64,000 nt of DNA from Faecalibacillus sp. (GTDB lineage: Bacteria; Bacillota_I; Bacilli_A; RFN20; CAG-826). The translations under genes and the position numbers were made by a program. The notes under the pieces are model-generated. The model saw only the letters and a program-made list of their open reading frames with translations. It was not told the origin of the DNA and ran no database searches. Positions 2,508 to 55,260 of the stretch are shown here, in pieces. Positions within the stretch are counted from its first letter, which is position 1. Every line of letters begins with the position of its first letter. The stretch lies in assembly GCA_963588175.1 (NCBI GenBank), contig CAVAGP010000002.1, forward strand, positions 51,515 to 115,514. Direction: 5' to 3'.

Positions 2508-2530
2508 TGCATTCACCTCCTGATACGCTT

Positions 2531-2559
2531 ATATTACAGCATTCGTAACGAAATGTCAA
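2531..2559 (-). promoter_or_regulatory. par operon promoter with flanking GTAACG/CGTTAC hexamer repeats (likely RHH operator)
   Basis: Minus strand: TTGACA (2559..2554), 17 nt, TAATAT (2536..2531). Three copies of CGTTAC/GTAACG lie at about 2545..2590, bracketing the -35 box. Confidence 0.5.
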
Positions 2560-2814
2560 TAACCGTTACCGTGTATTTTTTCGTTACTCAGTAATTTTTT
2601 GTTTGTATGTTAATAACTCTGTTAATATCCTGTGTATAACCTTGTTGATAACTTCTGTTTTCGCAATGTTCACTTTCGATATTGCGGATTTCGAGCTGTC
2701 GGAAACAAGTACATATATAATACTATGATAGATATAAGACTGTGATATATAAGACTGGTTAGAGCAGATCAATCCGCGCAGCAAAAAATCTCTCAAGAAA
2801 TTTCCAGAATCCTA

Positions 2815-2844
2815 TTGACAAACCCATCAGACATCGTGTATTAT
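2815..2844 (+). promoter_or_regulatory. Candidate promoter of the rep-like gene
   Basis: TTGACA (2815..2820), 18 nt, TATTAT (2839..2844), about 200 nt upstream of the rep start. Tandem ATATAAGACTG x2 at about 2731..2757 lies between the two divergent promoters. Confidence 0.45.
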
Positions 2845-3046
2845 TGGAGCGTGAAGATATCTATATGAAAATATATAGGCGTATTCCCAGTGCGCATATC
2901 TTCTTTTCACACAGACGCTATAAGAGTATGGTCGTATATTTAGTAAGAGGTTATAATTTATATTATAGCTTTATTAAGTTTACTCTTTTTTGATACATGT
3001 AGCACCTGTGACAACAGGTGCTTTTCTTATTTTTAGGAGCTTTATT

Positions 3047-4601: not shown

Positions 4602-4672
4602 ACCTCAAAATAAATTAACAGACGAAAAAGTGCTAAAAAAAGGGATAGCATACGCTATCCCTTTTCTTATGA

Positions 4673-5524
4673 TTAAATAATGTTCACATATTTAGTTTCT
4701 TTATTCCAAGCAAGTAACCAACCAGAAGCGCAACGGACAAAAACGCTGCCGTCTTCACCGGTCTTAATGCTCTTACAAGTAATCTCAGTAGTTGCTTTCA
4801 GAGTGGCTTCCTTCGCGGACGTGCAGCACTTCTGAGTGTAAGCAGACAGATCTTTTTTAAGTTTAACATCTGCATCTTTTGAAGCTGCTGTTCTTAATTT
4901 TAAATCAGTACGAAGTTTGTACACCTTCCCTACTTCAAATTTCGGAGCAGTGTTTGATTTAACTTTAACTTGACCGTTCAAAATTTTCTTAACTTGAGAT
5001 TTAAAATCAATCCATTCTTTGTTATTGGAACCACACATCTGCTGAGGACAGCTTTTCATCGTACAATCATAGTGTCTCAATACATATGTATCCACCTGAC
5101 TCGCTGAAATACCGAGCTTCTTGCACATATACGCACAAACATAAGCAGCGTTGTTTTTGGTCTTTGAACTTACGCGAGAATTGCCGCTAGTACACATCTC
5201 AATACTGATTGAATTTTCGTTACGGCAATACGGATGCACATAAGACTTAGCGCCTACTGCCCACGCTCTATCTTTTAATTTTACCGATTGGATAATATGA
5301 CTCTCATCAACAAAGATATGCGCAGATGCTTTTCTCCCAGATGTTCTGAAATAGTTACAATTCGCCGCAGCCGTATCTTTGACATTGCCGGTATAGTGCA
5401 TAACCACATACTTCACAGTGCGGCCCGAACATGTCTCGTAGTTGCCACTAGAACAAGCAACATGCCCTATTTGGATACCGTTAATTTTTCCGTTAATCCA
5501 TTGGTCAGAAATATATTTACTCAT
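4673..5524 (-). CDS. Endolysin: N-acetylmuramoyl-L-alanine amidase (Amidase_2/PGRP-type) with C-terminal binding domain
   Basis: VKYVVMHYTGNVKDTAAANCNYF...ASAHIFVDE...NENSISIEMC...LRHYDCTMKSCP are typical zinc-amidase blocks. Start moved to ATG 5524 (GGAG SD). Holin-like genes lie immediately upstream. Confidence 0.85.
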   Translation of the reverse strand: MSKYISDQWINGKINGIQIGHVACSSGNYETCSGRTVKYVVMHYTGNVKDTAAANCNYFRTSGRKASAHIFVDESHIIQSVKLKDRAWAVGAKSYVHPYCRNENSISIEMCTSGNSRVSSKTKNNAAYVCAYMCKKLGISASQVDTYVLRHYDCTMKSCPQQMCGSNNKEWIDFKSQVKKILNGQVKVKSNTAPKFEVGKVYKLRTDLKLRTAASKDADVKLKKDLSAYTQKCCTSAKEATLKATTEITCKSIKTGEDGSVFVRCASGWLLAWNKETKYVNII

Positions 5525-22400: not shown

Positions 22401-23140
22401 TTTCTCTCAAGTTCAGCATTTTGTTGCTTTAACGTTTGGAGTTCAGCCTCATCAGTCATACTAAGACGACCGTTTGCAGATAACTTTTGCAATTCTTCTA
22501 TACGAGATTGCGTAGTTGATAACTCATCATTCACAGAACTCAAATCAGATTGCGTGCTTGCATACGTAGACGCAGCGTCTTGAGCCGCCTGTTTGTTGTT
22601 GTCATACTCATGTAGTTTATCCGAAATAGCACCAATAGCAATTCCAATTGCAGCCATTGCAGCCATCTGCGGTAAGACAGAGACTAAGGTGGCTTTTAAT
22701 CCAGATAAGACAGTTCCAAAGGTGCTAAAAGATGTAGATACTTTTCCAGAAGAAACATTTTGAAATTGCTTTTCAGCTTTCGCAAGTTCCTTCGAGGCTT
22801 GGATTCGGTTTTGTCGTGCCGCATTATATTTCTCAGTAGCCTTAGCTTGTTCTTCAATGGAGGACGTAGGAGATTGAAGAATGTTACGTAAATTATTTTC
22901 GGCACTAGTCAAATCCTTGGCTGCCTTAGCGCTCTGGCTCCTTGCTCCATCAAGATTAGTCTGCGCTTTGGTTAAAGCATCTTGAACGATAAGTTGATTC
23001 TTTTGTGCATCTGTTAAAGAACTGCTTTCAACCACAACTTTCTTTTGTGAGTCTGAAAGTCCATCCAAACTTTTTCGGACGATATCAATATTTTTCTCGC
23101 CTTTGATGCTTTTTATTGCTTCTCCAGTTGTTTTTAGTGA
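16481..23140 (-). CDS. Tape measure protein, exon 4 (C-terminal 2219 codons)
   Basis: 2220-aa ORF-track ORF that begins only with an in-frame TTG, with no SD and no ATG for about 155 codons. Long coiled-coil, Ala/Lys/Gln-rich sequence with a hydrophobic segment (VLPQMAAMAAIGIAIGAI), typical of TMPs. The in-frame join to exon 3 is proposed at 30574|23140. Confidence 0.7.
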   Translation of the reverse strand, partial: SLKTTGEAIKSIKGEKNIDIVRKSLDGLSDSQKKVVVESSSLTDAQKNQLIVQDALTKAQTNLDGARSQSAKAAKDLTSAENNLRNILQSPTSSIEEQAKATEKYNAARQNRIQASKELAKAEKQFQNVSSGKVSTSFSTFGTVLSGLKATLVSVLPQMAAMAAIGIAIGAISDKLHEYDNNKQAAQDAASTYASTQSDLSSVNDELSTTQSRIEELQKLSANGRLSMTDEAELQTLKQQNAELERKKTLLEAQAKADLKDTVDENYELLTDDSKVYHNESAAISGEKITGANGGSFSGRRDVIEDLTANLKKMKLAEKDLTKLENERQKLQDKGENTDDLDKRISDQKQKLSDLKAEAATEAADIQTARDELAKGIGSTYWNDDYQKAFDAANAALLKYESDTSNATPLQKDLKTLQSFFNNGTDSRSQLQSTILDKMAESGKKASDVVAALGISLDDLGVENVENLNRYFDDLSESATKAQKKAKEVDGTLEGIAKAAESANEGADFENLGNYLKSGKDLYDKGLVGTDDFKTIAKFIDPDGKKYKRDFADNYEKLQRYFTTNDDGEYTKSGINNFVSDLASSGKEFKNTAEVADQLGISVRSVEAIMGRLGDYDITKYGSFKIKNIQSVAKAYDEASSNLDKLKTARDGIEDSDTRDALSNDIDEFEKYLDGLDGDLSKFDPEIAVKIKAELDEAQIRAERVRLKNLIDNGNDSHETLAEYISTNERDLSTMESGDHNSFKTKNGKYKSWVNDSYVNSRNVAENLSDFMGKNINTLSDDQITDIQQYKRKIQEAELAVQDSFAAAKKSGKSVAQWKKEAKKDGLFAELISLSEDADNYIKKLGGDTSKRKYSKNKRKRQNKDKDDVSDDSFEEGTKKYKAKTSKDDPSSGCRQSNKKTSETDETVKVNYEIASQELPEEEQALLDYAVQSQEDPEDQEALMNYVIEHQDDPVAMNALLSYIKANQDNPDAMNALMDYIKGSQESPSRKTTPVDYTKGNQINPDPKDTKVDYNLGLQQTPDPKNTEVNYTKGSQEAPSPMTTIVNYVKRFIGGDGTSPATGTAFSESSTKIGGPAKASGDWSVGKSGRALVNEVGPEIISRKGRWFIHNGGKPGFADLQKDDIVFNAAQTRDLLNSGKASSYGKFIGASHANGTVGGMSFASGSGEDKVLSNFQEWFGKFFDWIEIRLDRVERKIDNVITKAESAMNQQRWQRSENLYRKGISYTIGQIGRETTVQGRYKDKADSVLNRAVSKGLINNKQAKAIRKQVKDGSLNIKSYGDRMQEVIKDYKEFYDKSLDAADAIQELKDKVLDYVDALEELHEAQMQAKLDVIDSLDDINTSTQNYTAAAKAAQLRYANDNLEKQNDAYKTRVEETRKDYGRAQNSAENAAKQQSKAKRHKGTSKSEYKKYKKAVKSAQAAIKSGKEVSSSDLSVIENYAKKTTGKTSAKNANKLAAKIIKYNAERQALDEAKLARDVAKAENNADIISNIQDIYDAMDDEANDQIDLLESQADVATTLEEKNKLLKQASSLYDTMLSNDDAEIAEMASGVNSAAKKIAKSTAYGKAINSASAATRKKVEALVQECKRRAASGEDITDDMISQLAEYNSKGYVWRSFYNACLQYHQYYQAKLQAEAQKKIDEASFKAEKEALAYQAFQNIQESYERQQQQYDNEASIIDAQQSKNQALGYGDSAKYYTAKQKAQLAQNESMRQELNALQASLSDLTVGSDEYYDALDAINDLTVSLIEGEAAVAEYQQSINQLNWDRFDELQDRISNLTSETDFLIDLLSYKDLQDKDTGNDTEYGKAVKALHVQNYQTYTQQAKDYAEAIKELDEQFADDSLNKDYLDRRQELVEAQQDAIIAAQDEKESLIDLVQDGYDAQLDALDKLISKYSDVLNAQKDIYDYQQNIKDITKDITTYQKQLQAYQYDDSEEAKQRIQQANQNLMNAQQDLSDAEYDQYISAAQDLLSDLEDELSDHFDDIIDSLRDNADDLINSIDANSADVSSTIKEATDSVGYTMSDAMTKIWGTDSEYGTISASVSAAVTGIKTLSSDINAAADKIAYAVTNKNPEKNGPTDKDPFEITGFASGGVVGNSKKILSRNGDTDFTINTLKAGERVLTPEQNQNFEKLVSFAPDLMDAVAELPKVSIPVDLQSNVSQIDISSPINIEFTLPNVQNYSEFMNEMQKDKRVEKWLTSMLVNPLTGKSSMSKNNIRF

Positions 23141-23156
23141 CAAAATGTGATATATT
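23128..23156 (+). promoter_or_regulatory. Candidate promoter of zinc-ribbon gene (straddles the TMP exon 4 boundary)
   Basis: TTGTTT (23128..23133), 17 nt, TATATT (23151..23156) with an upstream TG (extended -10). Confidence 0.4.
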
Positions 23157-23176
23157 ATATAAAGGAGGAAAACAAT

Positions 23177-23662
23177 ATGAGAAAAATAATTTGCAAAGAT
23201 TGTAATGAAGAATATGACGTAAATGACAGCAAATGCAACAAATGCGGCTGTTTAACATCAGACACAAAAGAATATTATAAAATTAAGTATTCGGAGAGTT
23301 TTGAATATGTATTTGATATGTGTCCTGTCATATGCGAGTGTAATAAAAACTATAGTGACCAGAATATATACATTAGAGATGATGCGATATATACCTATTG
23401 TCCAATTTGTCAAAATGATCGCGTAATTGCACCATTAGACCTCGAAAGAGCCAAACGTTTTAACGATGTGCGAAGAAAAGGTTTTTATATGGCAGAACAA
23501 GAATCTCAAAACAAATGCGTTCCACATTGTCCAACATGCGGTTCAACCAACATAAAAAAGCTTAGTACAACCAAACGTATTACTCACGGTGCGATGTTTG
23601 GATTGTTCAGTAAAACCGCTCGTTCTCAGTGGGAATGTAAGAATTGCGGTAATAAATGGTGA
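23177..23662 (+). CDS. Multi-zinc-ribbon protein (unknown function)
   Basis: Start moved to ATG 23177 (AAAGGAGG SD). Four CxxC pairs: CKDCN...CNKCGC, CPICQ, CPTCGS...CKNCGNKW. It is the only plus-strand protein gene in the island. Confidence 0.6.
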   Translation: MRKIICKDCNEEYDVNDSKCNKCGCLTSDTKEYYKIKYSESFEYVFDMCPVICECNKNYSDQNIYIRDDAIYTYCPICQNDRVIAPLDLERAKRFNDVRRKGFYMAEQESQNKCVPHCPTCGSTNIKKLSTTKRITHGAMFGLFSKTARSQWECKNCGNKW

Positions 23663-24133
23663 GAAAAAGCGACTGTAAATACAGTCGCTTTTTATATGTA
23701 GAAATAAAAGAGTATTCAATGTTGCAATTTCAGATTTAGACATATGAACAATTTTGTTTGGATGTATCGAATTTAATGAATGGTATATCTTATATTCCAT
23801 CAAAATATTCTGTAATTTTTCCAAAGATAATTTATCTATGGTTCTTCTGTAATTTAATAATTCCTCACATAGTTCGACTGTAAAAGTATTATTAAGTTGA
23901 AGATAACTATCCTTTTGAATGACAGTTTCAATAGGATCATCTGAATAAACCACGATATTGCTCCGGAATGCAGCCTGATATTCTTTGCCTTGTAACGAAT
24001 CCATATGTGCAATTTCAATGTAATCATCATTAATCGCTACTATTAAACAAGGATGTTCTTTATCAGCAACTACACCATCATTATTAAAACGTACTCGCAA
24101 CCAAAGTACTTGTCCAATCTCTAAATCTTTCAT
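23543..24133 (-). CDS. MazF/PemK-like (SH3-barrel) toxin candidate partnered with Panacea-like gene 1
   Basis: N-terminus GQVLWLRVRFNNDGVVADKEHPCLIVAINDDYIEI resembles the MazF/PemK G.i..v.f.......K.RP.lVv block. ATGA overlap with the upstream gene. The ORF runs through the 23664..23693 terminator and 120 nt into the convergent gene. Confidence 0.4.
   Translation of the reverse strand: MKDLEIGQVLWLRVRFNNDGVVADKEHPCLIVAINDDYIEIAHMDSLQGKEYQAAFRSNIVVYSDDPIETVIQKDSYLQLNNTFTVELCEELLNYRRTIDKLSLEKLQNILMEYKIYHSLNSIHPNKIVHMSKSEIATLNTLLFLHIKSDCIYSRFFSPFITAILTFPLRTSGFTEQSKHRTVSNTFGCTKLFYVG
23664..23693. terminator. Bidirectional intrinsic terminator
   Basis: A5-AGCGACTG-taaata-CAGTCGCT-T5 (stem 23668..23675 / 23682..23689). 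Confidence 0.65.
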
Positions 24134-24624
24134 AAGTCAATTCTGTCTATAACCTTTAACATATCGGAATACTGTTCGACATATTCCTTATGATGTCCTT
24201 CGGTGTCCATTTTCTGTTCTGCTCCAGTACAATTTCGTTTCTCTTGCCAAGCAGAATCTTCATGAGAAAGTTCGATTAATTCTTCTAATGAAGCATTTTG
24301 CAGAACATAAAAAATCTTGTCTAAAAAACAACGGACAGAATTATCTGCTTCGGTAAAAGATTTTGAGTTTGAAAGCAAGGAAGAATAGTTTCGATAGACA
24401 TCGTTTACTACTGCTCCATTAGCATAAGCAAGCAAAGGGTCTGCAAATAAAAGATTACCAGTCTTAGCGTAGAAAAGGTTTTGCGAAATGTGTAAATATT
24501 TATTCAGCCTAGCATTGCCAGAATAAAAATTATGGCCATTCCGACATGTTAAATCTGTAGTGAAAATATTATGATTAGGATCTTTTGAAAGATAATACAA
24601 AGCAATATCTCTTGCAGAATACAT
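24130..24624 (-). CDS. Divergent Panacea (DUF4065/SocA-like) antitoxin-domain protein 1
   Basis: Start moved to ATG 24624 (AAAAGGAGG SD). MYSARDIALYYLSK...LNKYLHISQNLFYAKTGNLLFADPLLAYANGAVVNDVY is weakly DUF4065-like. Own promoter TTGACA (24796..24791), 17 nt, CATAAT (24773..24768). Confidence 0.45.
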   Translation of the reverse strand: MYSARDIALYYLSKDPNHNIFTTDLTCRNGHNFYSGNARLNKYLHISQNLFYAKTGNLLFADPLLAYANGAVVNDVYRNYSSLLSNSKSFTEADNSVRCFLDKIFYVLQNASLEELIELSHEDSAWQEKRNCTGAEQKMDTEGHHKEYVEQYSDMLKVIDRIDL

Positions 24625-24809
24625 AACAAAACCTCCTTTTCTATATGAAAATGGCTCCATAAAAGTAAGAATGGGGATAGTTTTCACTAGCCCCACCCGT
24701 CATCTTCACTCGGTTATTTTTTGTTTACCGACGAGTCGGAACCGTCACTCGTCATCTTCTTTACTATATTATGAAGCAAAATATGTTAAATGTCAATAGG
24801 AATTTTTTA

Positions 24810-25298
24810 TTATGTAGAATTATCTGTAGTCTGAGTCAGTTGAGATTCAATAGCAGACACATCAGGAAATATAATTTTTACGCCTTTACGATGAAGAACT
24901 AATACTCTTTGAGCTTTAGCCAATAACTTTGCTTCAGCAACTTCGTCCAAACGAACAGATTTGCCATGATTAAAATATTCATCATTAACATAATCTTCTG
25001 TTACTGGACACATATTTTGAATCAAGAATGCCTTTTTATATCCGAGAACATATGCAAAGAAAATAGTATCACAACGATGATGTCTTTTCATCTTTTGATT
25101 ATAAATTCTTTTGAATTTACTTACCTGAGAAGAAAATGGAATCATCCAATATAAGCCAGTAGTTGGATCTTGAAAGGCATAATAACAAGCTCTTCCGTGC
25201 GGCTGACCGTTTTGTTCTTCTTTGTTTTGCATCAAACAAGGATCAGAAAAAGTAGAAAAATATTGGTCTTTGAGAAAATAAAAATGTCCAGTTTTCAA
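24810..25298 (-). CDS. ToxN/AbiQ-family type III toxin (endoribonuclease) candidate
   Basis: FYFLKDQYFSTFSDPCLMQNK...GLYWMIPFSSQVSKFKRIY...AFLIQNMCPV resembles ToxN/AbiQ blocks. Preferred start is TTG 25298 (GAGG SD 7 nt upstream); an alternative ATG lies at 25328. Preceded by tandem RNA-type repeats. Confidence 0.65.
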   Translation of the reverse strand: MKTGHFYFLKDQYFSTFSDPCLMQNKEEQNGQPHGRACYYAFQDPTTGLYWMIPFSSQVSKFKRIYNQKMKRHHRCDTIFFAYVLGYKKAFLIQNMCPVTEDYVNDEYFNHGKSVRLDEVAEAKLLAKAQRVLVLHRKGVKIIFPDVSAIESQLTQTTDNST

Positions 25299-25347
25299 AA
25301 TAAATACCTCATATGAAAATAGCTCCATTCGATAAAGAACGGAGCTA

Positions 25348-25450
25348 CAAGATTTGAACTCGACCTTCTTTGAGTTGCGTATCGAGAAGCAACAGACATT
25401 TGGACTCGACCTTCTTTGAGTTGCGTATCGAGAAGCAACAGACATTTGAA
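25348..25450 (-). ncRNA. ToxI/antiQ-like repeat RNA (type III antitoxin candidate): 2 full 46-nt repeats plus a partial one
   Basis: Units at 25359..25404 and 25405..25450 (ctcgaccttctttgagttgcgtatcgagaagcaacagacatttg[g/a]a), plus a partial copy at 25348..25358. Directly upstream of the ToxN-like ORF on the same strand. Confidence 0.65.
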
Positions 25451-25467
25451 ATCTTTTCTGTATCAAT

Positions 25468-25496
25468 AGTATATGCTATATCTTCAGAAAAATCAA
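25468..25496 (-). promoter_or_regulatory. Promoter of the type III module
   Basis: TTGATT (25496..25491), 17 nt, TATACT (25473..25468). Confidence 0.5.
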
Positions 25497-25539
25497 TATT
25501 CTATGGGTAAAAATTGAACATTTTTATTATGTAAGTTAT

Positions 25540-26427
25540 TTATTTGCCATCATCAATACTGGAGATATTTCCTGATCCATTAGCAACTTCGTCTACAAGC
25601 CGATATTGATGATTGCCAATATTAATTTTTTCTGGAAAAGACATTTTCGAAACACCAAGAGAGATAATTGTAATCACAGCCACAAAAGCTAAAACTCCTA
25701 TACTGGCTATAATTTTAGCATTCCACTTTCTCTTCCCATTTTTGTCTCGAATAACTTTGTCGTTAATTTCTCTCAAAAAATCTATTAGGATCGACACCAA
25801 AAGGACAAAAACTAATCCAATTACGATAGCAATAACCACGAGATCTAATGTTTTGGCTTTGCCAAGATTGTTTAAGACAGAAGTCGAAAAGGTAAATGCT
25901 CCTACAAAAGCTAACATAATAGAAGCAAAGATTCCCAAGATTGTGATATACTCCTTTTCTACGCCCTTAATCTCATTATGAAGGTCTACTTTCGCATCTA
26001 CAATTCGCTGTGCAAAAATGTCATTCATATTTTCGATTTGGTAATTGACCAATTGCGTATGGTCGTATATTTTTGTAACTATTTTTACAACATCATCATT
26101 AATACTATCTTCTTTGCTCAGAGAATAAATAAGCAGATTCTCAACATTTGTAAGAAAGATAGCTCTTTTGTCCGGCTCTAAATTAAACAAATAATTACTA
26201 ATTTCAGAATATGGAATCCTAGCTATTTTATCTTTTGTATTCACATAGAGATCAATCTGCTTAATTGTTTTCTCTGGACGATATTTTTTCGTTTCGATTG
26301 TTAGACAGTAGCAAATACTATTTATCCTTCGTTTGGTTGTATTATACTTCTTAGAATCAGTACTAAGAAATTCGTCAGAAGAATCATCTACTTGTTGAAG
26401 TGAATCAAGAGGATTTGTGTCAAGCAT
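25540..26427 (-). CDS. Membrane protein, toxin/effector candidate partnered with Panacea gene 2
   Basis: 295 aa. A soluble N-terminal ~165 aa is followed by three hydrophobic helices (ILGIFASIMLAFVGAFTF, LVVIAIVIGLVFVLLVSILI, IIASIGVLAFVAVITIISL). 8-nt overlap with the upstream antitoxin-like gene. Confidence 0.5.
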   Translation of the reverse strand: MLDTNPLDSLQQVDDSSDEFLSTDSKKYNTTKRRINSICYCLTIETKKYRPEKTIKQIDLYVNTKDKIARIPYSEISNYLFNLEPDKRAIFLTNVENLLIYSLSKEDSINDDVVKIVTKIYDHTQLVNYQIENMNDIFAQRIVDAKVDLHNEIKGVEKEYITILGIFASIMLAFVGAFTFSTSVLNNLGKAKTLDLVVIAIVIGLVFVLLVSILIDFLREINDKVIRDKNGKRKWNAKIIASIGVLAFVAVITIISLGVSKMSFPEKINIGNHQYRLVDEVANGSGNISSIDDGK

Positions 26428-26899
26428 GGAAATACTCCTTTATAGCTTTGGGTGAGATCTCAGTGTTCTTCCCTTGCTGATAAGCATTCTTCCACGGAGC
26501 TTGGCGATGAGTAATAGCTACTAAATCAGTTGCAGAGTAATCAGAAAATTTATCGACGACTGCTTCAATCATATGTTTATCCGTTTTTGTGATAACGTCA
26601 TCATCGTATTCCAGTATCCTTGAATTCCAAATATTATCCTCATCAACATCCACGATAAACGAAGTGGTTGGAATATCTCCACTCCCGAATTGCTTATACC
26701 TTTTATATGCTTCTGGAACAACTGGACCAAAATCCCATGCTATAATTTTTTCTTTAAAACATTGCTTATCGGCGACAATCAAGAAGTACGCCTGAACGAA
26801 ATATAACATTTTCTGAAGTTTTAAGTTAGAAATACCATAGTCTTTTTTATTGCTGTAATCAATTATATATTTACAAACATCTAATACATCATAGCTCAT
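26420..26899 (-). CDS. Panacea (DUF4065/SocA-like) antitoxin-domain protein 2
   Basis: VLDVCKYIIDYS...ISNLKLQKMLYFVQAYFLI...EKIIAWDFGPVVPEAYKRYKQFG...HRQAPWKNAY. Own promoter TTGACA (27018..27013), 17 nt, TATACT (26995..26990). The 5' UTR ends TTTTCATATAGAAGAGGAGGT, nearly identical to that of gene 1. Confidence 0.7.
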   Translation of the reverse strand: MSYDVLDVCKYIIDYSNKKDYGISNLKLQKMLYFVQAYFLIVADKQCFKEKIIAWDFGPVVPEAYKRYKQFGSGDIPTTSFIVDVDEDNIWNSRILEYDDDVITKTDKHMIEAVVDKFSDYSATDLVAITHRQAPWKNAYQQGKNTEISPKAIKEYFHA

Positions 26900-27033
26900 C
26901 TACTACACCTCCTCTTCTATATGAAAATAACCACACCGTAAGATGTGGTTATTAATACGATTTTGGTAGGCTTCGTAACCTCTATTAACAGTATATGCTA
27001 GAATAATATAAATGTCAATATAATTATATTATC

Positions 27034-27486
27034 TTAATCATTTTGAGCTTCTTCATATTTTTTGGCATAGTAGTTTCTCATTGTTTTGCATGAGATAGGA
27101 TCTGTACATACTTCCCACGCATAAGCTTGATGACGCGCTTCTTTCCACGGGTGTTCTGAACAAGCGAGCCACTCAAGTTGATCTCCGGTGAATTCTCCAT
27201 ATGTGTTATATACTGCATTTAAAACATATAACGTGTCATCTGAAAATAATGAGTAATCACAATTCTCTTTAGGTATTTCTTTCCATCCATATTTGGAGAA
27301 TTGCCGATAGAGGGAAGGAACTACAGGGCCATGAACCCACGCCTGAATTTCATCCTCAAACAACCGATCTCCAGCAAACAGAGCACAACTCCACGCCTGA
27401 GCATAATAACAAAGTTTTTGAAGTTTTTTATGCGTCATTGAATCTTTACTCAAGAACCATTTGGCAATATCAGCAACGGCATACAT
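27034..27486 (-). CDS. Panacea (DUF4065/SocA-like) antitoxin-domain protein 3
   Basis: VADIAKWFLSKDSMTHKKLQKLCYYAQAWSCALF...DEIQAWVHGPVVPSLYRQF...SEHPWKEAR. SD TAAGGAG; starts 12 nt after the stop of the 148-aa ORF. Confidence 0.75.
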   Translation of the reverse strand: MYAVADIAKWFLSKDSMTHKKLQKLCYYAQAWSCALFAGDRLFEDEIQAWVHGPVVPSLYRQFSKYGWKEIPKENCDYSLFSDDTLYVLNAVYNTYGEFTGDQLEWLACSEHPWKEARHQAYAWEVCTDPISCKTMRNYYAKKYEEAQND

Positions 27487-27498
27487 AATAGAATCTCC

Positions 27499-27945
27499 TT
27501 AATGATTGTAAGCAGAATAATCGAAATCAAAAGCGATTACATGCATAAGATTAGGTTGATATATATCGTCTTTACATATAATACGATATTTCTGCTGTCC
27601 AAAACGAAACACAGTAAGTTTTGTTTCATCCGTAACTAAGTTCTTTTGAATGCAAATAGACTGGATTTTATTTGACATTTGTTTTAGGGGAATTTTTTCT
27701 AACCCAGCAGTTTTGCCTCGATCTCTTGCTTCGGTTACTGTTATCTGAGATAATTCATATAGTCTTTTGTGTAAATGTTCATATGCCTTGCATTTATCAG
27801 AAGTGCTTTTCCGGAAATATTCAAAGCCATGAGAGGAGTCGAAACTCATATAAGAGAATCCAAAACAGATGTTTAGGGGAGACTGACCTAAATTGCCAGA
27901 GGATAGTTTCGGCACAATCCTTCGTTTGTCTTTAGCTTTCATCAT
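27499..27945 (-). CDS. Toxin candidate (possible RelE/ParE-like fold) flanked by two Panacea genes
   Basis: 148 aa. The C-terminal part LTVFRFGQQKYRIICKDDIYQPNLMHVIAFDFDYSAYNH resembles the RelE-superfamily ...yRiiy......v..i...H..Y pattern (weak). Overlaps the stop of Panacea gene 4 by 14 nt. Confidence 0.35.
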   Translation of the reverse strand: MMKAKDKRRIVPKLSSGNLGQSPLNICFGFSYMSFDSSHGFEYFRKSTSDKCKAYEHLHKRLYELSQITVTEARDRGKTAGLEKIPLKQMSNKIQSICIQKNLVTDETKLTVFRFGQQKYRIICKDDIYQPNLMHVIAFDFDYSAYNH

Positions 27946-28402
27946 CTACATAATTTTCCCTGAAGTATTTTTTCATAGTGTCTCGGCTAATAATCTGGTT
28001 CAGGCGCTTACCATGATTGGTAGCTTCTATCCAAGGAGATTCTTCATGAGTCCGGTTCCTTAATGCCCATGCAGAATATTGCCCAAACACATCAAATACT
28101 TGTGTCAAGAATATTGAATCATCCTTAGAAAATTTTCGAGCATCTTGAATATCTTCGTCTGTCAATTGTAAATTATACGGATCAGAATAAGCATAGTAAA
28201 CTTCTTTGACAACAGGACCATGTTCCCAAGCTAAGATATCTTCATTGAATAAAGATTTGTTCTTAATAGCCAAATAAGAACCTTCGGCGTAATATAATAA
28301 TTTCAAAAGTTTGAGAAGTGACAACGGTTCTCCACCAAGATCGTCTTGTGCTTGTTGGTTATGATATATAAACCAATGAGCAACATCAATCGCACGATAC
28401 AT
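27932..28402 (-). CDS. Panacea (DUF4065/SocA-like) antitoxin-domain protein 4
   Basis: AIDVAHWFIYHNQ...LSLLKLLKLLYYAEGSYLAI...EDILAWEHGPVVKEVYYAY...HEESPWIEAT. GAAGAGGAGG SD. Confidence 0.75.
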   Translation of the reverse strand: MYRAIDVAHWFIYHNQQAQDDLGGEPLSLLKLLKLLYYAEGSYLAIKNKSLFNEDILAWEHGPVVKEVYYAYSDPYNLQLTDEDIQDARKFSKDDSIFLTQVFDVFGQYSAWALRNRTHEESPWIEATNHGKRLNQIISRDTMKKYFRENYVDDES

Positions 28403-28465
28403 AACAAGACCTCCTCTTCCTTATATGTTATTATATTATGAATCAGATCATCAAAAACATCAAGA

Positions 28466-28497
28466 CAAAATATAAAAATAGCGGGGAAATCCCCCGC
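28466..28497 (-). terminator. Intrinsic terminator (minus strand)
   Basis: GCGGGGG-auuu-CCCCGC followed by UAUUUUUAUAUUUUG on the minus strand. Confidence 0.6.
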
Positions 28498-28531
28498 CGT
28501 TCGGTGGACTAGGGTCTTACGACCAGCCCAA

Positions 28532-28714
28532 TCAGTTCGAACTGTTATCTTGCTTGCGAAATGCAAATAATTCTAATTTAGCTCGCGCCTTCTCCAAAGA
28601 AGGGGAGTGTGGTTGATAGTTCTGAAAAGAACTATTATCAAGAATTGATTTCAGACTCTCGAAAGAAGCGGAGTCTTTTATATAGAATTCTTTTGTGATA
28701 GAAGATGTTGCCAT
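28532..28714 (-). CDS. 60-aa protein downstream of Panacea gene 5 (partner of unknown nature)
   Basis: CGAGGTG SD 5 nt upstream of the ATG, 12 nt after the stop of the upstream gene. Hydrophilic; no motif recognised. Confidence 0.45.
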   Translation of the reverse strand: MATSSITKEFYIKDSASFESLKSILDNSSFQNYQPHSPSLEKARAKLELFAFRKQDNSSN

Positions 28715-28726
28715 GAAAACACCTCG

Positions 28727-29167
28727 TTATTCTTCCGATAATCCTCCATAATACATTGCCATGCTTTCTTGTGTAATAATATTATCTGAACCAACACCCA
28801 TAGGCAATCCTTTTCGAGCTTCATTCCAAGGCGCTTCCATATGGGTAAGCTGACTTAGCCATTGGGCATTATGACAAGCGTAATGGTCTAACACAATATC
28901 TATAGTCTCTTTCTGAGAATCTGACAAAACAGATATATCTCCCGGTTCGTCGTTCTCAGTTACTGCAAATATTCCTTGCGTCTCAAAGAACAACTCTCGA
29001 CACACAGGACCATTTGCCCAAGCATGAAATTCCTCTGGGAACAATGGCTCGTCATCCCATACAAGAGACCATGCTTGACAATAATAACAAAGTTTTTGCA
29101 ACTTCATTGTAGAAAGCTTTCCTTGTTTGTGTAGAATGTATTTTGCTACATCAAATATACTTGCCAT
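28727..29167 (-). CDS. Panacea (DUF4065/SocA-like) antitoxin-domain protein 5
   Basis: IFDVAKYILHKQGKLSTMKLQKLCYYCQAWSLVW...EEFHAWANGPVCRELF...THMEAPWNEAR. Confidence 0.75.
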   Translation of the reverse strand: MASIFDVAKYILHKQGKLSTMKLQKLCYYCQAWSLVWDDEPLFPEEFHAWANGPVCRELFFETQGIFAVTENDEPGDISVLSDSQKETIDIVLDHYACHNAQWLSQLTHMEAPWNEARKGLPMGVGSDNIITQESMAMYYGGLSEE

Positions 29168-29602
29168 ATGCTCCCCGTCCTATCGGTTGATATTATATTC
29201 TGCTTTACAGAAATAATAAAATGCGTGTTACAATGCTGGCTGTCAGCCCAGACGTTAATGACGCCTGTAATCAAATCATCGTATATCCTCGATGCAGGCT
29301 GCGTGTCCTTTCGAACACAGATATGTGCGTGGTACTTATCCTCCCCAGCCGGAGCACAGCTTTAACGTGTCGCCACACGGAGAACGTTTCGATCTCTTGA
29401 ATACTGAGAAGGAGACTAGCACAATACAGTGCCATAGTCTCCTTCTACGATTGACTTTGCCGTTATCAGGAAACCCCTCCAGATCCCACATCTGGAGGCA
29501 TTGGCAGGCATTGTCGTCGCTTACTGACTATGCTCAACGCGGAGCATCCCTGATTTTACACGTCAGCGTCGTGGATTTTCCTTTAGAATTTAATTTAAGC
29601 TC

Positions 29603-29631
29603 TTGACAAGGAAAATCCAATCTGTTATTAT
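29603..29631 (+). promoter_or_regulatory. Promoter of type I toxin-like mRNA, copy B
   Basis: TTGACA (29603..29608), 17 nt, TATTAT (29626..29631). Predicted +1 at G29638. Confidence 0.6.
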
Positions 29632-29772
29632 CGAAGAGTGGAAGCCACCGACCCGACTTGGATTGGGGGGGTGGAACGGTTCCGAAGACGGTTGCCTGTC
29701 ATCTCGCAAAGCGCGGAATGGAGGCTTGCATATAGCTCTTTGTGGGAAATATTTCCGAAGGAGGACGAACAC

Positions 29773-29871
29773 ATGATTACTACCCTGAGTATCACCGGAA
29801 ACATTTCCAGCATTCTCGGTTTCGCATTCGCGATCTTCGTGTTTACATACCAGATAAAGAAAAAGAAGTGA
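29773..29871 (+). CDS. 32-aa hydrophobic peptide with Lys4 tail (type I toxin candidate, copy B)
   Basis: AAGGAGG SD (29759..29765), 7 nt, then ATG. MITTLSITGNISSILGFAFAIFVFTYQIKKKK has a single TM-like helix and a cationic C-terminus. Confidence 0.55.
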   Translation: MITTLSITGNISSILGFAFAIFVFTYQIKKKK

Positions 29872-29972
29872 ACTGTCCGCCACAATAGACAGCTTCACAG
29901 GATTTATGAAGTTACCAGCTTTATAAATCAAAAATAAAAATCACAAATCTGTAGCAACCGTCTGGTTTCCAC
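29855..29972 (-). ncRNA. Antisense RNA (type I antitoxin candidate), copy B
   Basis: Promoter TTGACT (30007..30002), 17 nt, TATAAT (29984..29979), +1 about G29972. Hairpin GUGAA(G)CUGUC...GACAGUUCAC (29898..29868) followed by UUCUUUUUCUUUAU. Overlaps the toxin stop and KKKK codons. Confidence 0.55.
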
Positions 29973-30060
29973 ACTTTTATTATAAACTTCTTATTAACAA
30001 AAGTCAATATGTCCCCACACTTTGAAACAAAAAGTTTTTATAAAAGATTGAATTTATTTG

Positions 30061-30090
30061 TTGACTTTGACGATAAACACCATGTATAAT
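30061..30090 (+). promoter_or_regulatory. Promoter of small plus-strand RNA
   Basis: TTGACT (30061..30066), 18 nt, TATAAT (30085..30090). Confidence 0.5.
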
Positions 30091-30096
30091 ATACAC

Positions 30097-30178
30097 AGAT
30101 GGTAAGTATCACTTACAATCGACAAAACTCTAACGAGAGTGGTTGTGCTGCATTCAGTATGACCACTCTTATTTTATT
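30097..30178 (+). ncRNA. Candidate ~80-nt sRNA antisense to the 3' periphery of the TMP intron core
   Basis: Downstream of the promoter lie hairpin GUAAGU-auc-ACUUAC and terminator AGAGUGGU (30136..30143) / ACCACUCU (30162..30169), followed by UAUUUUAUU. No ORF with an SD. Confidence 0.45.
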
Positions 30179-30276
30179 CCCATTTGCGGCAGGGAAGAGC
30201 CGAATCACATTTTAGAACAAACATTATTAGCTGCACATCTAAGGCGTATGCAACTAAGAGGGTGGGTGCTCGTTGG

Positions 30277-30573
30277 GGATGAATACCATTTAAAAAGCTT
30301 ACCTCATATTATTGAGATGTGCTTTACCTAAACGTTTGGTATCCGTCCTGCTGATTGCAGTCAATGCATCATATCTTTTTAAACCATGCCATATATCATT
30401 ACTGATTCTGTTTTGGCATATAATACTCTTGCTTCCCAGCATTTACCCCTCTAGGTATTTTAAATCATCAAGAACCCCTATGTTAATATTACTTGTTCAC
30501 AACACCATTTTTATTGTGTTCTTGTAATAAAGTAGACTCGCTATACAACCCTATGTCTTTTGGGTCAATCAAA
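30277..30573 (-). ncRNA. Group I intron catalytic core (TMP intron 3)
   Basis: - P1: exon UCAUCAAGAAU (30584..30574) with guide GUUCUUGAUGA (30476..30466), 11 bp including U.G.
- P3: UACCUA/UAGGUA (30457..30452, 30330..30325).
- P/Q boxes: AAUGCUGGGAAG / GCAAUCAGCAGG (30443..30432, 30358..30347).
- P7: GGAUACC/GGUAUUC (30344..30338, 30287..30281).
- P8: AUCUCA/UGAGGU (30318..30313, 30306..30301).
- P9 hairpin lies just outside this span at 30257..30227. Confidence 0.7.
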
Positions 30574-31179
30574 ATTCTTGATGAATGCAGCAATACCGCT
30601 GCCAACAGCTATGGTTCCTAAAGAACCCATTGCACTAGTTATCTGATTAATGACTTGTAAGAATTCATTTGCACCAGAAACAGCACCTTTTAGAAAATCT
30701 GAATCTGCTAAGTTAGAAGAAGTCTCTTGGAACGTAGCCTTTAACTGACCAAGACGTCCTTGAATAGACTCCATATAACGAGCATTTTCTTGCTCGGCAC
30801 TACCTGCGGATTCGTACTCCGCTGTCTGATATGCTTCTTTAATCATATCAACATTATTCAGAGCAGCAGCAAGTGCGTTTGCTTGGTTCTTACCAGCGAG
30901 AGTTTCAAGTAATGCAGCCTGATCTATGTCAGACAGACTATCCCAAACCTCGCCGATACCGACGATAATATCATACATATTTTTAAATGTTTTACCGTCG
31001 GATTCCATAATGTCAAAGCCTGTCATGCTTTGCACAATGTTTTGTAATTTAGACGAGCTTGTGACTACATTATCTGTGTCTTCGCCCATTGTCTCAAGTT
31101 CAGTAGATGCACCACGGATACGAGCAGATACTGTTTTCCACATATTGCCTGTACGTGCTGCATCCTGTACGACAGCATT
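30574..31179 (-). CDS. Tape measure protein, exon 3
   Basis: Begins NAVVQDAARTGNMWKTVSARIRGASTELE and ends with the hydrophobic segment ...SLGTIAVGSGIAAFIKN. 606 nt, in phase with exons 2 and 4. The ORF-track ORF 30565..31143 is its 3' part. Confidence 0.8.
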
Positions 31180-31611
31180 CTATTGTATTCAATAAGGTCG
31201 TAAATCTTATTATGTATTATTTACATCATTATGTTTCCATAATGTATAGGTCATCTTTTCACCTGCGCCATTATGCGATCAGGGTACACTCTTTCCATTT
31301 AAGGGGTTTTCACCCACGCCATATACGATTGCGCCGTACTCCTATTGACTAATATAGTCCCGACACGGGGATGACCGTCGAACCTCTACTCTTACCGCAA
31401 AGCAGTAAGGCTTGGCTGCTGATTGCCAATTGCATAAATCTTTAGCACCCGAAGGCTTTTTTTCAGCATAGATTCATCTCAATATTTTTTTCTGCTTTCG
31501 CAACATTCACGTTTGTCTTTTCGACTGCGTTGTAGTATATTGAGCTTTATGGGTTCCCAGCAATTAAGTGTATTCTTAGGCACATATTTCTATATACCGA
31601 ACCTCTATCGA
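31180..31611 (-). ncRNA. Group I intron (TMP intron 2, 432 nt, no ORF)
   Basis: 5' splice site GGAACU|UCGAUAGA. Guide GGUUC pairs with exon GAACU (U.G at the site). P box AAUUGCUGGGAA, Q box GGCAAUCAGCAGCC. P7 is GGUCAU/AUGACC. Ends ...CAAUAG| with a terminal G. Confidence 0.8.
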
Positions 31612-31729
31612 AGTTCCTGTTGTTAATGCTATAGCTTGAGATAAGTCAGTGTTTGCTACTTTAAAACTAGCAGAACTACGTTGCAGAGCCTCGCCGATAT
31701 CATCAGACGATATTGCGAAATTATTAGAT
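31612..31729 (-). CDS. Tape measure protein, exon 2 (118 nt)
   Basis: Encodes (V)SNNFAISSDDIGEALQRSSASFKVANTDLSQAIALTTGT, the missing middle of the TP901-type TMP core. Too short for the ORF track. Confidence 0.8.
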
Positions 31730-32016
31730 CAATTGTTACTTTTCAAATTGAAAAGGCTAGGTCATTTCTGCCTAGCTCTCACGTTTTATATTTTTGATTA
31801 TTGCGTGAGGTCGGACTGTATATTCATCCTATAAGAGCAGGAGGATAACTTCAGTAAAATGTATTACTACATTAAACCCGGCAGTCTCTACGGATTCTAT
31901 AATTTTAAATCATAGTCTTTCCTCGGTCTGAACCATCTCTGGCCTTTAACCGATATAGTTATCGTCAACTCTAAAAAGAGAAGCATATGTGTTGCCACAT
32001 ATGGAGGCATCTGTTT
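31730..32016 (-). ncRNA. Group I intron (TMP intron 1, 287 nt, no ORF)
   Basis: 5' splice site AAUGAGGU|AAACAGAU. Guide GCCUC pairs with exon GAGGU (U.G). Q/R-like AAUCCGUAGAGACUGCC and S-like AUAUACAGUCCGA (P7 is GACUG/CAGUC). Ends ...AACAAUUG|. Confidence 0.8.
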
Positions 32017-33518
32017 ACCTCATTGAATTTGTCTACAACGGATTCTGCTTGATCTGCTTGTAATCCAAAACCTTGCAAGGTAGATGTCAAGCTGCTAGTA
32101 GCAGTATCAATATCAATATTGTCGCCAACGTTCTGATACAACGCAGCAACTTTAGCTAATTTGGTTGAATCCTCTAATCCGTATCCTTGACGTACCCAGT
32201 CGGAAGCGGAACGAATTACATCACTAACGGTATTGCCAGTTTGTTGAGCAATACTGCCTGCATCTGTAATGACCTTCTTATAGTCATCCGCACTGCCTGA
32301 CGATACTTTCTTCAGTTCAGTGAGGGCAGAGTCCAAATCAACTACATTGCTTACAATTGATTTAACGCCTTGTAACATATACTGAAAACTCATTGAGGTC
32401 ATCATATATGTTCCAAGAGTTTTAAATTTAGAAGTCAACTTACCAAAGACACTATTCGATGCCACGCCAGCTTCAAGAGCTTGCGTCTTGAACTGCGTGA
32501 ATTCGCCATTTAATTTATTGATCTCACTAATCTGTTCATCCGTATAAGTTCCTGTGGTTTTATACGCTGATACCAAACCTTCGACCTGTTGTCGAAGAGC
32601 TGAAGCATTACCAAAATCTTTAGCTTTCTTATTCGAGTTAAAGAAGTTTGCCATCTTGTTTTGCAGATTGATAATGCGATTGTAGGCGGCTTCTACTTCT
32701 TTTGCATTTTTGACAGCAGAGCCATCAACCAATAAACCATTGTTAGAAAAACTTTGTTTTAACGAATTGTGCTTTGCATTAAAATCCTTTAAAGAATCTT
32801 CGGTTAAATATGAACTATTTCGTAATTCATTAAACCTGCTATACTGCGCATCAAACTGTCTCTTTAATTCAGAATTATCGCTGAATAAGTTGTTTTTCTG
32901 TAAGACAGTTTGCAATTTAGCATACTGGCCTTCGTAGTCTTTTAAAATGTTGCTTCTATTCGATACTGCATTTGTTTTGTCTTTGGATAAAAAGGCGATA
33001 TCCTTACCGTTTCTTTTTGTTAGTGAGTACTGAAAATCCTGAGCAGCTTGTGCTCCCTCTTTAAAGGAGACAACCATATCTTTGCCCATTTGTTTATATG
33101 TAACACTAACATTCTTTCCAAGAGTAGTCGCGTTCTTTTCAATGGCGCTCCACTCTTTTTTTATGCCGTCAAAACTACCAGAAGCATAGGGAATATCAAA
33201 GCCTTTAAATGCTTGCTTCAATCCTTTGTTCTGGCTCTTAACCATTTTGGAAAAATTCTTTAAATCATTTGTAGATTTTTTGGTATCTACTTTTACATCA
33301 AGAGGCTTCTTTTCAACCGAGCCTTTTGCTACGTTTAAATTTTGGAGAGAAGAGGCAAGCCTCTTAATTTCATCGGCGGCAGTTCCATCAACGCCAACTT
33401 TGATTTTCCATTCTTTGCCGGTAATCTGTTTTTCTAATGAAGCTATGACTTCTTGGGCCGCAGACGCATCGGCAGTTACATTAACTTTAAGATCTGCACT
33501 TACAGATGTATTAGGCAT
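32017..33518 (-). CDS. Tape measure protein, exon 1
   Basis: GAGGTGGAG SD. Ends ...TLQGFGLQADQAESVVDKFNEV, the start of the conserved TP901-type TMP core. The ORF-track tail NRCLHMWQHICFSF is intron read-through. Confidence 0.8.
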
Positions 33519-55054: not shown

Positions 55055-55260
55055 ATTCCTGCCACTCAAAATGTGTTTAAACATACTCAAACACATCGAG
55101 AAATTGAAGTCCTTACGGATACTTCTCACTGCTTCAATGTGTATGCTTTGGCGATTGCAAATAATGCGCTACTCACAAGTTCTTGTACACTCCGCAGTCG
55201 TTAATTCCCGAAATAGCCTTCGGTACATACTTACGTTTGCTTGATTATGCAATCTCGTAA
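55055..55260 (-). ncRNA. Candidate omega/reRNA of TnpB (3' end of element)
   Basis: Hairpins CCGAA-ggcuau-UUCGG and GAAGU-auccguaagg-ACUUC lie downstream of the tnpB stop. Placement is typical for the TnpB guide RNA scaffold. Boundaries are not determined. Confidence 0.35.

Follow-up and report, generated by a model that had tools for sequence, protein, structure and literature searches.

Small group I introns and a putative cargo-bearing third intron in the giant tape measure gene of an SPbeta-like gut phage

INTRODUCTION

Group I introns without an open reading frame (ORF), of subgroups IA1 and IA2, have been described at three sites in the tape measure protein (TMP) genes of Bacillus cereus-group prophages (Tourasse & Kolsto 2008, PMC2504315), and the intervening sequences concerned, TMP-IVS1, TMP-IVS2 and TMP-IVS3, include related introns that have adapted to different sites through P1 (PMC2504315). 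IStrons such as CdISt1 and BcISt1 have a ribozyme at the 5' end and are spliced as one unit, the element being excised whole and hence harmless when inserted in a gene, and group I introns of up to ~20 kb have been noted in other systems (PMC4227781). Here we describe the TMP gene of an SPbeta-like phage (YonD/YonB/YomU/YomW-type) of gut Firmicutes, carried on the minus strand of a 64,000-nucleotide stretch of contig CAVAGP010000002.1; this whole stretch is called the window, and coordinates count from its first letter. The analysis was computational and used sequence only. We consider it very probable that the window encodes one giant TMP of ~2961 aa, in four exons separated by three group I introns, laid out as follows; loci of relatives are IMG/VR and Logan metagenome contigs, labelled Lnnn.

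32017..33518, minus strand: TMP exon 1, 1502 nt, start codon at 33518; aligns to the intron-less L002 up to the junction
31730..32016, minus strand: intron 1, 287 nt, ORF-less group I with P7.1 (IA-like)
31612..31729, minus strand: TMP exon 2, a 118-nt micro-exon; 91% identity to L002 11518-11631
31180..31611, minus strand: intron 2, 432 nt, ORF-less group I with a P5 extension and P7.1/P7.2; omega-G at 31180
30574..31179, minus strand: TMP exon 3, ending after AAU (30574) or UUUU (30571), each in frame
23141..30573, minus strand: proposed intron 3, ~7.43 kb, with a 5' group I core, cargo and an antisense zinc-ribbon gene; putatively spliced
16481..23140, minus strand: TMP exon 4, 2219 codons plus stop; the ORF 16481..23143 has 2220 codons including TTG

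Given the Bacillus precedent (PMC2504315), introns 1 and 2 add further examples to a kind of intron known before. As with TMP-IVS1-3, several ORF-less IA-type introns share one prophage TMP gene, sites are adapted to by change of P1 and its internal guide sequence (IGS), here in the family of intron 1, and related phages have intron-less alleles; the window phage differs in being SPbeta-like and of gut Firmicutes, and no multi-kb cargo intron has been reported for Bacillus TMPs. The unusual part of the locus is the toxin-antitoxin island of the third intron, and the small introns are modest in novelty.

Like an IStron, the third element has a 5' group I ribozyme followed by kilobases of coding DNA before the 3' splice site, and IStron splicing shows, by analogy, that such a layout can work at 2 kb (PMC4227781). 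Unlike IStrons, it is 7.4 kb and thus ~3-4 times longer, has no transposase or TnpB, bears toxin-antitoxin/antitoxin genes with promoters and terminators of their own and a conserved antisense zinc-ribbon gene at its end, and keeps to a single conserved site in a single gene family, where IStrons use scattered TTGAT targets. An IStron combines its 5' ribozyme with TnpA/TnpB of IS200/IS605 or IS607, which the window element lacks, and we therefore speak of an IStron-like layout and not of a member. In the nrdD (sunY) intron of phage T4, reportedly treated by Michel et al. in 1992, the ORF follows the core and the 3' junction is remote. Core, coding DNA and 3' site come in the same order as in the window, and P9.0 beside P7 likewise returns the 3' end to the core; the distance to be bridged in sunY is ~0.8 kb, with a single homing endonuclease gene and a P9.0 of 2-3 bp, whereas the window has ~7 kb, ~ten genes on both strands and 10 bp. 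No cargo-bearing intron in TMP genes turned up in the literature, which, coverage being incomplete, is weak evidence of novelty. If our reading is true, the third intron would rank among the largest group I introns of bacteria or phages and be the first found with toxin-antitoxin cargo.

RESULTS

Two exact insertions in the TP901-type core of the gene

The frame opened by the ATG at 33518 (minus strand; ORF 31971..33518) ends in ...DKFNEVNRCLHMWQHICFSF and a stop codon, and the next ORF opens at MWKTVSARIRG (31143). Joining 33518..32017, 31729..31612 and 31179..30565 gives a single 744-aa frame that reads ...VVDKFNEV^SNNFAISSDDIGEALQRSSASFKVANTDLSQAIALTTGT^NAVVQDAARTGNMWKTV... (^ marks a junction here and below). 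When this spliced product was compared with tape measure profiles, PF10145 matched in one stretch (residues 424-636, profile 8-201 of 201; 82.7 bits, cut-off 33.2), as did TIGR01760 (residues 380-735, profile 3-341 of 349; 94.9 bits, cut-off 28.8). Both junctions, at aa 501 and aa 540, lie inside the stretches matched by PF10145 and TIGR01760, and this continuous match places the product in the TP901 family of tape measures.

Related TMP loci were gathered with an 18-sequence alignment as the query, a single-protein query having returned 1 locus. An intron-less allele, P0001, is encoded in another metagenome (Logan contig SRR29834428_17492, locus L002); it is 748 aa long, 98% identical over the shared region, and reads ...VVDKFNAVSNNFAISSDDIGEALRRSSASFKTANTDLSQAIALTTGTNSVVQDAARTGNMWKTV... 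unbroken, with a gap at neither junction. At the DNA level, 482 nt of the joined window exons aligned gap-free to L002 11331-11812 with 91.5% identity, and the insertions are therefore exactly 287 and 432 nt: precise intervening sequences whose removal gives a continuous gene. Many stop codons occur in all frames of both, and the exon 3 ORF is also present on an independent contig.

The last nucleotide of the upstream exon is U for introns 1 and 2, and the last intron nucleotide is G (31730, 31180). P1 is formed by exon and guide with a U.G pair at the 5' site, as GAGGU/GCCUC in intron 1 and GAACU/GGUUC in intron 2, with the guides 8 nt downstream. The empty allele L002 reads GCUGU^AAGU at site 1 and GGAACA^AAU at site 2, where it has A at -1 (ACA vs ACU in the window). 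Intron 1 also has a 4-bp P10, in which intron nt 5-8 (AGAU) pair with AUCU of exon 2. Both introns have a P3-P9 core, including the P3/P7 pseudoknot, that is backed by covariation (see below). A two-step, guanosine-initiated pathway is to us the only reasonable reading of the two: each intron, once transcribed, would fold into a group I ribozyme whose guide pairs with the final 5 nt of the exon before it, leaving U.G at the cleavage site; free guanosine would attack the 5' splice site, the terminal G would dock, and the exons would be ligated to give ...FNEV-SNNF... and ...TTGT-NAVV....

An earlier reading of this DNA, made from the letters alone (the sequence-only reading), had placed the introns at 32016..31730 (287 nt) and 31611..31180 (432 nt) around a 118-nt micro-exon at 31729..31612; the intron-less allele L002 makes these coordinates exact, and the micro-exon is the segment that aligned to it at 91% identity. 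That the N-terminal ORF (31971..33518) ends in junk and the gene restarts at MWKTVSARIRG, that the 5' sites follow a U able to pair with GCCUC or GGUUC 8 nt downstream, and that the introns end in G could all be read again in the sequence. The same reading held that splicing restores the TP901-type core without gaps, which the colinearity of P0001/L002, the junction peptides as predicted, and the comparison with TIGR01760 and PF10145 that it had proposed as a check (a single stretch each, junctions inside) bear out. Its assignment of both interruptions to ORF-less group I introns agrees with the covariation of intron 1 and with an RF00028 match of intron 2 (E = 2e-5). Its remark that introns in TMP genes are uncommon fails in view of the three-site, ORF-less precedent in Bacillus prophage TMP genes (PMC2504315).

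Folds and relatives of introns 1 and 2

Compared with phages by blastn, intron 1 gave only short matches of 26-60 nt, which led to the introns of Brochothrix phage A9 (in a ribonucleotide reductase gene), Bacillus phage WH1 and Alicyclobacillus phage KKP_3916. The 3' half of intron 1 is homologous to these, nearly identical from P7 to the 3' end, and shares with them GAGACUG (P7), the J8/7-P7 box AGAUAYAGUCCGA, a covarying P9, the hairpin GCUAGGcagaaaugaCCUAGC and the tail UAACAAWUG^. Helices were assigned by hand, guided by the KKP_3916 alignment, with nt 1 = 32016 (minus strand):

P1: exon GAGGU with nt 9-13
P10: nt 5-8 with exon 2 nt 1-4
P2: 14-33; P3: 54-60/167-173; P4: 64-68/90-94; P5: 73-86
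P6/P6a: 95-125; P7: 131-135/199-203; P7.1: 144-159; P8: 175-190
P9: 208-239; P9.1: 241-261; P9.2: 262-278; omega-G: 287 = 31730

Covariation was scored over the 71 pairs of P1-P9 in a 10-sequence MAFFT alignment (A4), with 500 shuffles and slid controls for comparison. The model had 83.8% paired cells (73.0% in shuffles) and 34 double-changed pairs (22.4 in shuffles), and its covariation score of 0.351 compares with 0.145 in shuffles, 0 of the 500 reaching the observed value, and with at most 0.112 in the slid controls. The low scores of P7.1, P9.1 and P9.2 reflect register shifts in the MAFFT alignment.

With nhmmer, at least 15 IMG/VR loci were found to have homologs of intron 1 in their TMP genes, some of these introns at the identical site (exon ...GAGGU^) and others at a third TMP site. 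Guides match the local exon in each case (GAGGU/GCCUC, GUAGGU/GCCUAC, GUCGGU/GCCGAC, GUGGGU/GCCCAC), P1 thus covarying with the exon, and the U.G pair is invariant in 10 of 10 sequences of the family. The third site (...QDPxxVG^NMWKTV), 33 nt further downstream than the intron 2 site of the window, is filled by intron 1-type introns in L014, L039, L047, L063 and L043 (~9950-9965) and vacant in the window itself. In nine relatives of intron 1 the P6a loop is enlarged by 1.0-1.56 kb, and this insert codes for a zinc-finger-rich protein of 266-402 aa (bearers: L080 (8214-9624), L017, L014, L039, L020, L047, L063 and L043). This protein had no Pfam match and no PDB sequence match, and it may be a homing endonuclease, perhaps of an unclassified family. 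In L058, two intron 1-like introns stand in tandem (4655-4859, 4990-5182) in a TMP gene of the uninterrupted type. Intron 1 of the window thus belongs to a mobile family and itself lacks an ORF.

The P3-P7 core of intron 2 (31596..31408) was 73-77% identical by blastn to phage intervening sequences, namely the Twort-like lysin introns of Staphylococcus phages (Herelleviridae), as in the sequence that splits the lysin gene of phiSA_BS1/2 into two coding sequences, and unannotated gaps in Enterococcus, Lactococcus and Listeria phages. Lysin, ribonucleotide reductase and helicase-like genes are the hosts of the introns in the phages named above, as against a TMP gene in the window, and the IGSs therefore differ. 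The following elements of intron 2 (minus strand) were read from the sequence:

P1: GAACU^/GGUUC; P3: UACACU/AGUGUA; P4: UGCUGG/UCAGCA; P7: GGUCA/UGACC
P9: CAUUAUG-GAAA-CAUAAUG; terminal G: 31180

The P7.1/P7.2 insertion between P7 and the 3' strand of P3 is the mark of subgroup IA. Full-length relatives of intron 2 occur in other TMP genes (L061, L015, L057, L083), and in the RNAalifold consensus of these and the window intron (5 sequences) 28 of 60 pairs were double-changed, including pairs of P2, P3 and P8. Both small introns derive from mobile intron families found in the same TMP region of related phages, and neither has an ORF.

The gene continues past the stop at 30565

The sequence-only reading had counted two introns; both are real, and a third, larger interruption of the same gene (30573..23141) had been overlooked. 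The ORF end at 30565 marks the start of this interruption, and the 744-aa product (the N-part) is not the whole protein. All of the 120 closest N-part homologs (120/120) stop 0-41 aa after a hydrophobic KN(F/L/I/V)(D/G) motif, and their tails past this motif are unconserved, junk-like and rich in Cys and aromatics. In uninterrupted relatives, the TP901 domain is followed by 1000-3000 further residues in a single ORF, giving TMPs of 1500-3400 aa, as in Sundance (2528 aa), PMBT24 (1508 aa), L045-50, L058, L063 and L084-92. L044 has ...GLVQSLTGHG, then 2058 inserted nt, then AVQYDKENGWSGIIVD..., and L045 reads ...GLVQSFTGHGAVKYDSENGWSGIIVD..., that is, the N-part and C-part of L044 joined at TGHG^AV(K/Q)YD. 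The insertion is exact for this pair (TGHG^AVQYD), and as far as sequence can, the pair settles that the gene continues past the N-part stop.

The window's own insertion is backed by homology of the element, by matching phase and by alignments to PMBT24 and Sundance. Its C-part ORF lies 7.4 kb downstream of the N-part and has no Shine-Dalgarno sequence, its sole candidate start being a TTG that overlaps omega-G. When the joined N-part and C-part were compared by BLASTP with the PMBT24 and Sundance TMPs, the alignment passed through the junction, and there was a second local match to Sundance near the C-terminus; exon 4 had no match in Pfam. L051/L054 have an in-frame UGA directly at the junction, with no AUG until 35 codons into conserved sequence, and in L003 coding conservation begins 36 codons upstream of the first AUG. 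Phases agree at the 5' and 3' sites in the window, L044, L051 and L052.

A group I core and long-range pairings in the proposed intron 3

Past the N-part, a group I core was read from the sequence and its complementarity checked (all minus strand):

30131..30573: intron 3 group I core
30583..30571 with 30478..30466: P1, exon CAUCAAGAAUUUU with IGS GGGGUUCUUGAUG, 13 bp with four G.U pairs
30454..30447/30262..30254: P3, CUAGAGGG/CCCUCU(U)AG
30440..30436/30354..30350: P4, GCUGG/UCAGC
30348..30338/30287..30277: P6, GGACGGAUACC/GGUAUUCAUCC
30271..30267/30219..30215: P7, GAGCA/UGUUC
30253..30247/30237..30231: P8, UUGCAUA/UGUGCAG
to ~30131: P9, two hairpins, read from the sequence
30204..30213: J7/9 strand of an extended P9.0, AAAAUGUGAU, starting 2 nt past the P7 3' strand
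23142..23151: 3'-terminal P9.0 strand, AUCACAUUUU, followed by omega-G 23141

By nhmmer, the first 450-600 nt past the junction form one family in the window, L002-5, L043, L044, L051-55 and L060, which also resembles the P3-P5 region of intron 2. Few stem differences separate the cores of the window and L002, and all are compensatory or wobble. Relatives have the canonical P7 GACUA/UAGUC, compared with GAGCA/UGUUC in the window; their P3 is AAAGGG/CCCUUU, GAGGA/UCCUC or GAAGAU/AUCUUC, still paired, and their P8 comes in three further versions with pairing kept. P1 of L051 is AAAACGU^/GCGUUUU. The window intron has P1 with U.G, core helices P3-P8 and omega-G, and comparison by reading with L051 and L003 indicates that P1, P3, P4, P6, P7 and P8 are kept by compensatory changes. 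Boxes of P/Q/R/S type were also seen by eye at this site in L020, L014, L024, L019, L040, L078 and L016; simple P/Q/R/S regular expressions were too strict for classifying loci.

The segment 23151..23142 is perfectly complementary over 10 bp to 30213..30204 and ends directly before G23141. The 10-mer AUCACAUUUU has one minus-strand copy in the 64-kb window, the one at the 3' site, with ~0.69 expected on both strands. This J7/9 pairing has exactly the geometry of P9.0, stretched. The tether was sought in relatives and not found there, other long-range helices occurring instead: where the intron is minimal, its nt 25-37 pair with exon 2 +8..+20 in a helix of 8-13 bp, which L052 keeps with a different sequence, and in a further lineage a segment just 5' of the guide pairs with the start of the C-part. 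A G precedes every proposed 3' junction:

L051/L054: UUUG^AAAAGAG, phase 2, GU^A keeping the Val codon
L052: ACAUG^UCUAUUG, phase 2
L044: UUACAG^GCAGUA, phase 0
L003/L043: G^CAG, phase 0
Window: CACAUUUUG^UCACUAAAA, G = 23141, phase 0

We also considered, as a general rule, that the intron follows GAU of the IS200/IS605 target TTGAT at the end of exon 3, and rejected it since L051/L052 need a phase-2 site after ...ACGU; under the TTGAT reading the window's NFD^S is formally in frame.

We propose that intron 3 is a 7.4-kb intervening sequence headed at its 5' end by a group I ribozyme, in an IStron-like layout. Its core would pair with exon 3 via a P1 of 10-13 bp, and the 10-bp P9.0 would tie the remote 3' site G23141 to the core beside P7. 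Excision, with cleavage after 30574 or 30571, would join ...AAFIKN(F) to SLKTTGEAIK... and yield a TMP of 2961 or 2962 aa. Genes that bring promoters and terminators of their own would have come to fill the space between core and 3' site as a cargo bay, and could be expressed independently while the late transcript still gives an intact TMP. This would require either a late transcript that crosses the island, or that exon 3 with the core and the P9.0 strand with exon 4 meet in trans; late transcription in SPbeta-type phages is the work of a phage RNA polymerase, a YonO-like enzyme. We judge it likely that intron 3 is spliced to give full-length TMP. We also lean, a little less firmly, towards a wider view in which a large family of SPbeta-like gut phages has its TMP gene permanently split at one site (after KNxD/G) by ribozyme-led cargo-bay introns with 1 to 7.5 kb of exchangeable genes (Panacea, type I toxin, ToxN, GmrSD, DUF3800, TnpB, zinc-ribbon), still spliced via long-range pairings.

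If intron 3 splices, a self-splicing ribozyme can let accessory islands lodge safely within an essential structural gene, temperate phages would have a new route for carrying and exchanging toxin-antitoxin, defence and anti-defence genes, and bacterial group I introns would be able to select 3' splice sites beyond the limits known so far. The element would also be a testable link among IStrons, ordinary phage introns and 'moron' islands.

Competing explanations

Several observations weigh against the three-intron reading. We infer the splicing of introns 1, 2 and 3, that of intron 3 above all, from exact insertions, folds with covariation, colinearity with uninterrupted genes and long-range pairings. 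In Rfam, intron 1 had no match even at E up to 10 when the isolated region was scanned, and intron 2 matched the full RF00028 model (1-253; E = 2e-5) in an E-value scan with 31.4 bits, so that neither reached the 50-bit gathering score and the group I search proposed in the sequence-only reading came out positive for intron 2, below that score, and negative for intron 1; narrow E-value scans also left the window's intron 3 core and the canonical-looking L051 core undetected. We take these shortfalls as a limit of the model's sensitivity, given that clear relatives score low or are missed (KKP_3916 41.7 bits, A9 28.4 and 40.4 bits, gathering 50; the L051 core), and RF00028 was not used as a decisive test of group I membership. 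As the Rfam group I model misses these intron families, such genes are mis-annotated on a large scale, and the small introns matter mainly for annotation, in that gene callers fragment the TMP and give it a false C-terminus. The missing and low Rfam scores are also what could be said for taking the small interruptions as assembly errors, a decayed pseudogene or translational recoding, which we regard as scarcely credible when the insertions are exact (287 and 432 nt) against an intron-less allele, the exon 3 ORF recurs on an independent contig, homologous introns with covarying P1-P9 occupy the same and neighbouring sites in many phages, and both inserts are full of stop codons in all frames.

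Further such points concern intron 3. Its 5' site is ambiguous among four U (30574..30571), the P10 sought there has at most 2 bp and none is convincing, and a clean P1 containing U.G was not found for L003/L043 or L044. At protein level, uninterrupted TMPs align weakly across the exon 3/exon 4 junction, and the first 499 aa of exon 4, used as a query for homologs, gave one weak match and no fused homolog. At least two minus-strand intrinsic terminators lie inside the intron (28498..28480, ~23690..23660), and a transcript spanning it runs antisense through the transcribed zinc-ribbon gene. A rival reading is a two-piece tape measure, in which introns 1 and 2 are real, the 744-aa N-part (stop 30565) and a 2220-aa C-part are translated separately, and the core is a relic or has another role, e.g., processing the 3' end of the N-part mRNA. 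In its favour, the N-part ORF has a stop in every interrupted relative, island promoters and terminators would break a long transcript, the TTG at 23143 could start the C-part, and P10 is missing and the 5' site ambiguous. We nevertheless consider such an arrangement unlikely, because that TTG has no Shine-Dalgarno sequence upstream, L051/L054 (UGA at the junction, first AUG 35 codons in) and L003 conserve coding sequence ahead of any AUG, the tails after KNxD/G are unconserved and junk-like, the core is kept by compensatory changes across lineages, and both the 10-bp J7/9 pairing of the window and the 8-13 bp helix of the relatives would be purposeless. The island might instead be removed at the DNA level before late expression, like skin/SPbeta elements, or the prophage might be defective, its TMP destroyed by a mobile element; cargo does differ even between 98%-identical phages (L002 is without 29167..~25600), and TnpB occurs at the site in some relatives. 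This seems to us very improbable, as the window island showed no recombinase, integrase or transposase in Pfam, PADLOC or PHROGs, dozens of long viral contigs with otherwise intact structural modules share the architecture, and the junctions follow group I rules (U at -1, omega-G, phases) with no attachment-site repeats. A spliced intron 3 is the reading we prefer.

Cargo of the proposed intron 3

After the core, intron 3 holds ~6.9 kb of cargo, in which the following features were recognized:

29640..30007, both strands: type-I-toxin-like module, judged from layout only
29773..29871, plus strand: 32-aa hydrophobic ORF, MITTLSITGNISSILGFAFAIFVFTYQIKKKK, with a strong ribosome-binding site
29603..29631, plus strand: predicted promoter of the 32-aa ORF
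30007..29979, minus strand: convergent promoter of the type-I-toxin-like module
29894..29871, minus strand: terminator in the same module
28727..29167, 27932..28402, 27034..27486, 26420..26899 and 24130..24696, minus strand: five SocA/Panacea antitoxin-domain genes (PF13274)
27499..27945, 25540..26427, 24810..25466 and 23543..24133, minus strand: interleaved partner ORFs, candidate toxins
28483..28530, minus strand: DUF3800-XI RNA motif (RF02975, 62.9 bits vs gathering 37.8), with the terminator 28498..28480
23177..23662, plus strand: antisense zinc-ribbon gene, 161 aa, next to the proposed 3' splice site

The layout of 29603..30007 suggests a type I toxin with an antisense-RNA antitoxin. The five Panacea genes matched PF13274 with E values of 5e-07 to 2e-22, and their partner ORFs, which may be toxins, matched PHROGs of unknown function only and had no Pfam match; PADLOC gave no match for the island ORFs. 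Across Pfam, PADLOC and PHROGs, the island ORFs of the window showed no recombinase, integrase, transposase, OrfB_IS605 or TnpA.

A zinc-ribbon-type gene stands by the 3' junction in every lineage of the element that was examined. The window protein itself fell into no Pfam or PHROG family, and the Pfam matches of its homologs are to zinc ribbons only. The promoter of this gene (plus strand, 23141..23180) extends over the proposed 3' splice site and ~25 nt at the start of exon 4, and transcription of the zinc-ribbon gene and of the TMP pre-mRNA would therefore collide.

L002, whose TMP is 98% identical, is without ~3.6 kb of the island (window 29215..~25600 vs L002 13590-13879) that hold four Panacea modules; the cargo thus turns over faster than the flanking gene. 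Other relatives carry ToxN and GmrSD (L003-5), DUF3800 (L044) or GmrSD (L020, L040). In L078 (11092-12201) and L040 (11095-12267), TnpB (OrfB_IS605 + HTH + TNB) directly follows the core, and these two elements are of IStron type, inside phage structural genes. The shortest versions (L051-60, ~990 nt) consist of the core and the antisense zinc-ribbon gene only.

The DUF3800-XI motif lies just upstream of a Panacea gene, and the window has no DUF3800 gene; in the related element of L044, a DUF3800 gene is followed by repeated GAAAUGGGUGUCCAUUAGC motifs. The segment 29215..29600 is ORF-free, of higher G+C and conserved in L002 (~13230-13590), and it had no Rfam match. Outside the TMP gene, a RAGATH-18 RNA motif (RF03064) was found at 55126..55198 on the minus strand of the window, with 66.6 bits against a gathering score of 44.9.

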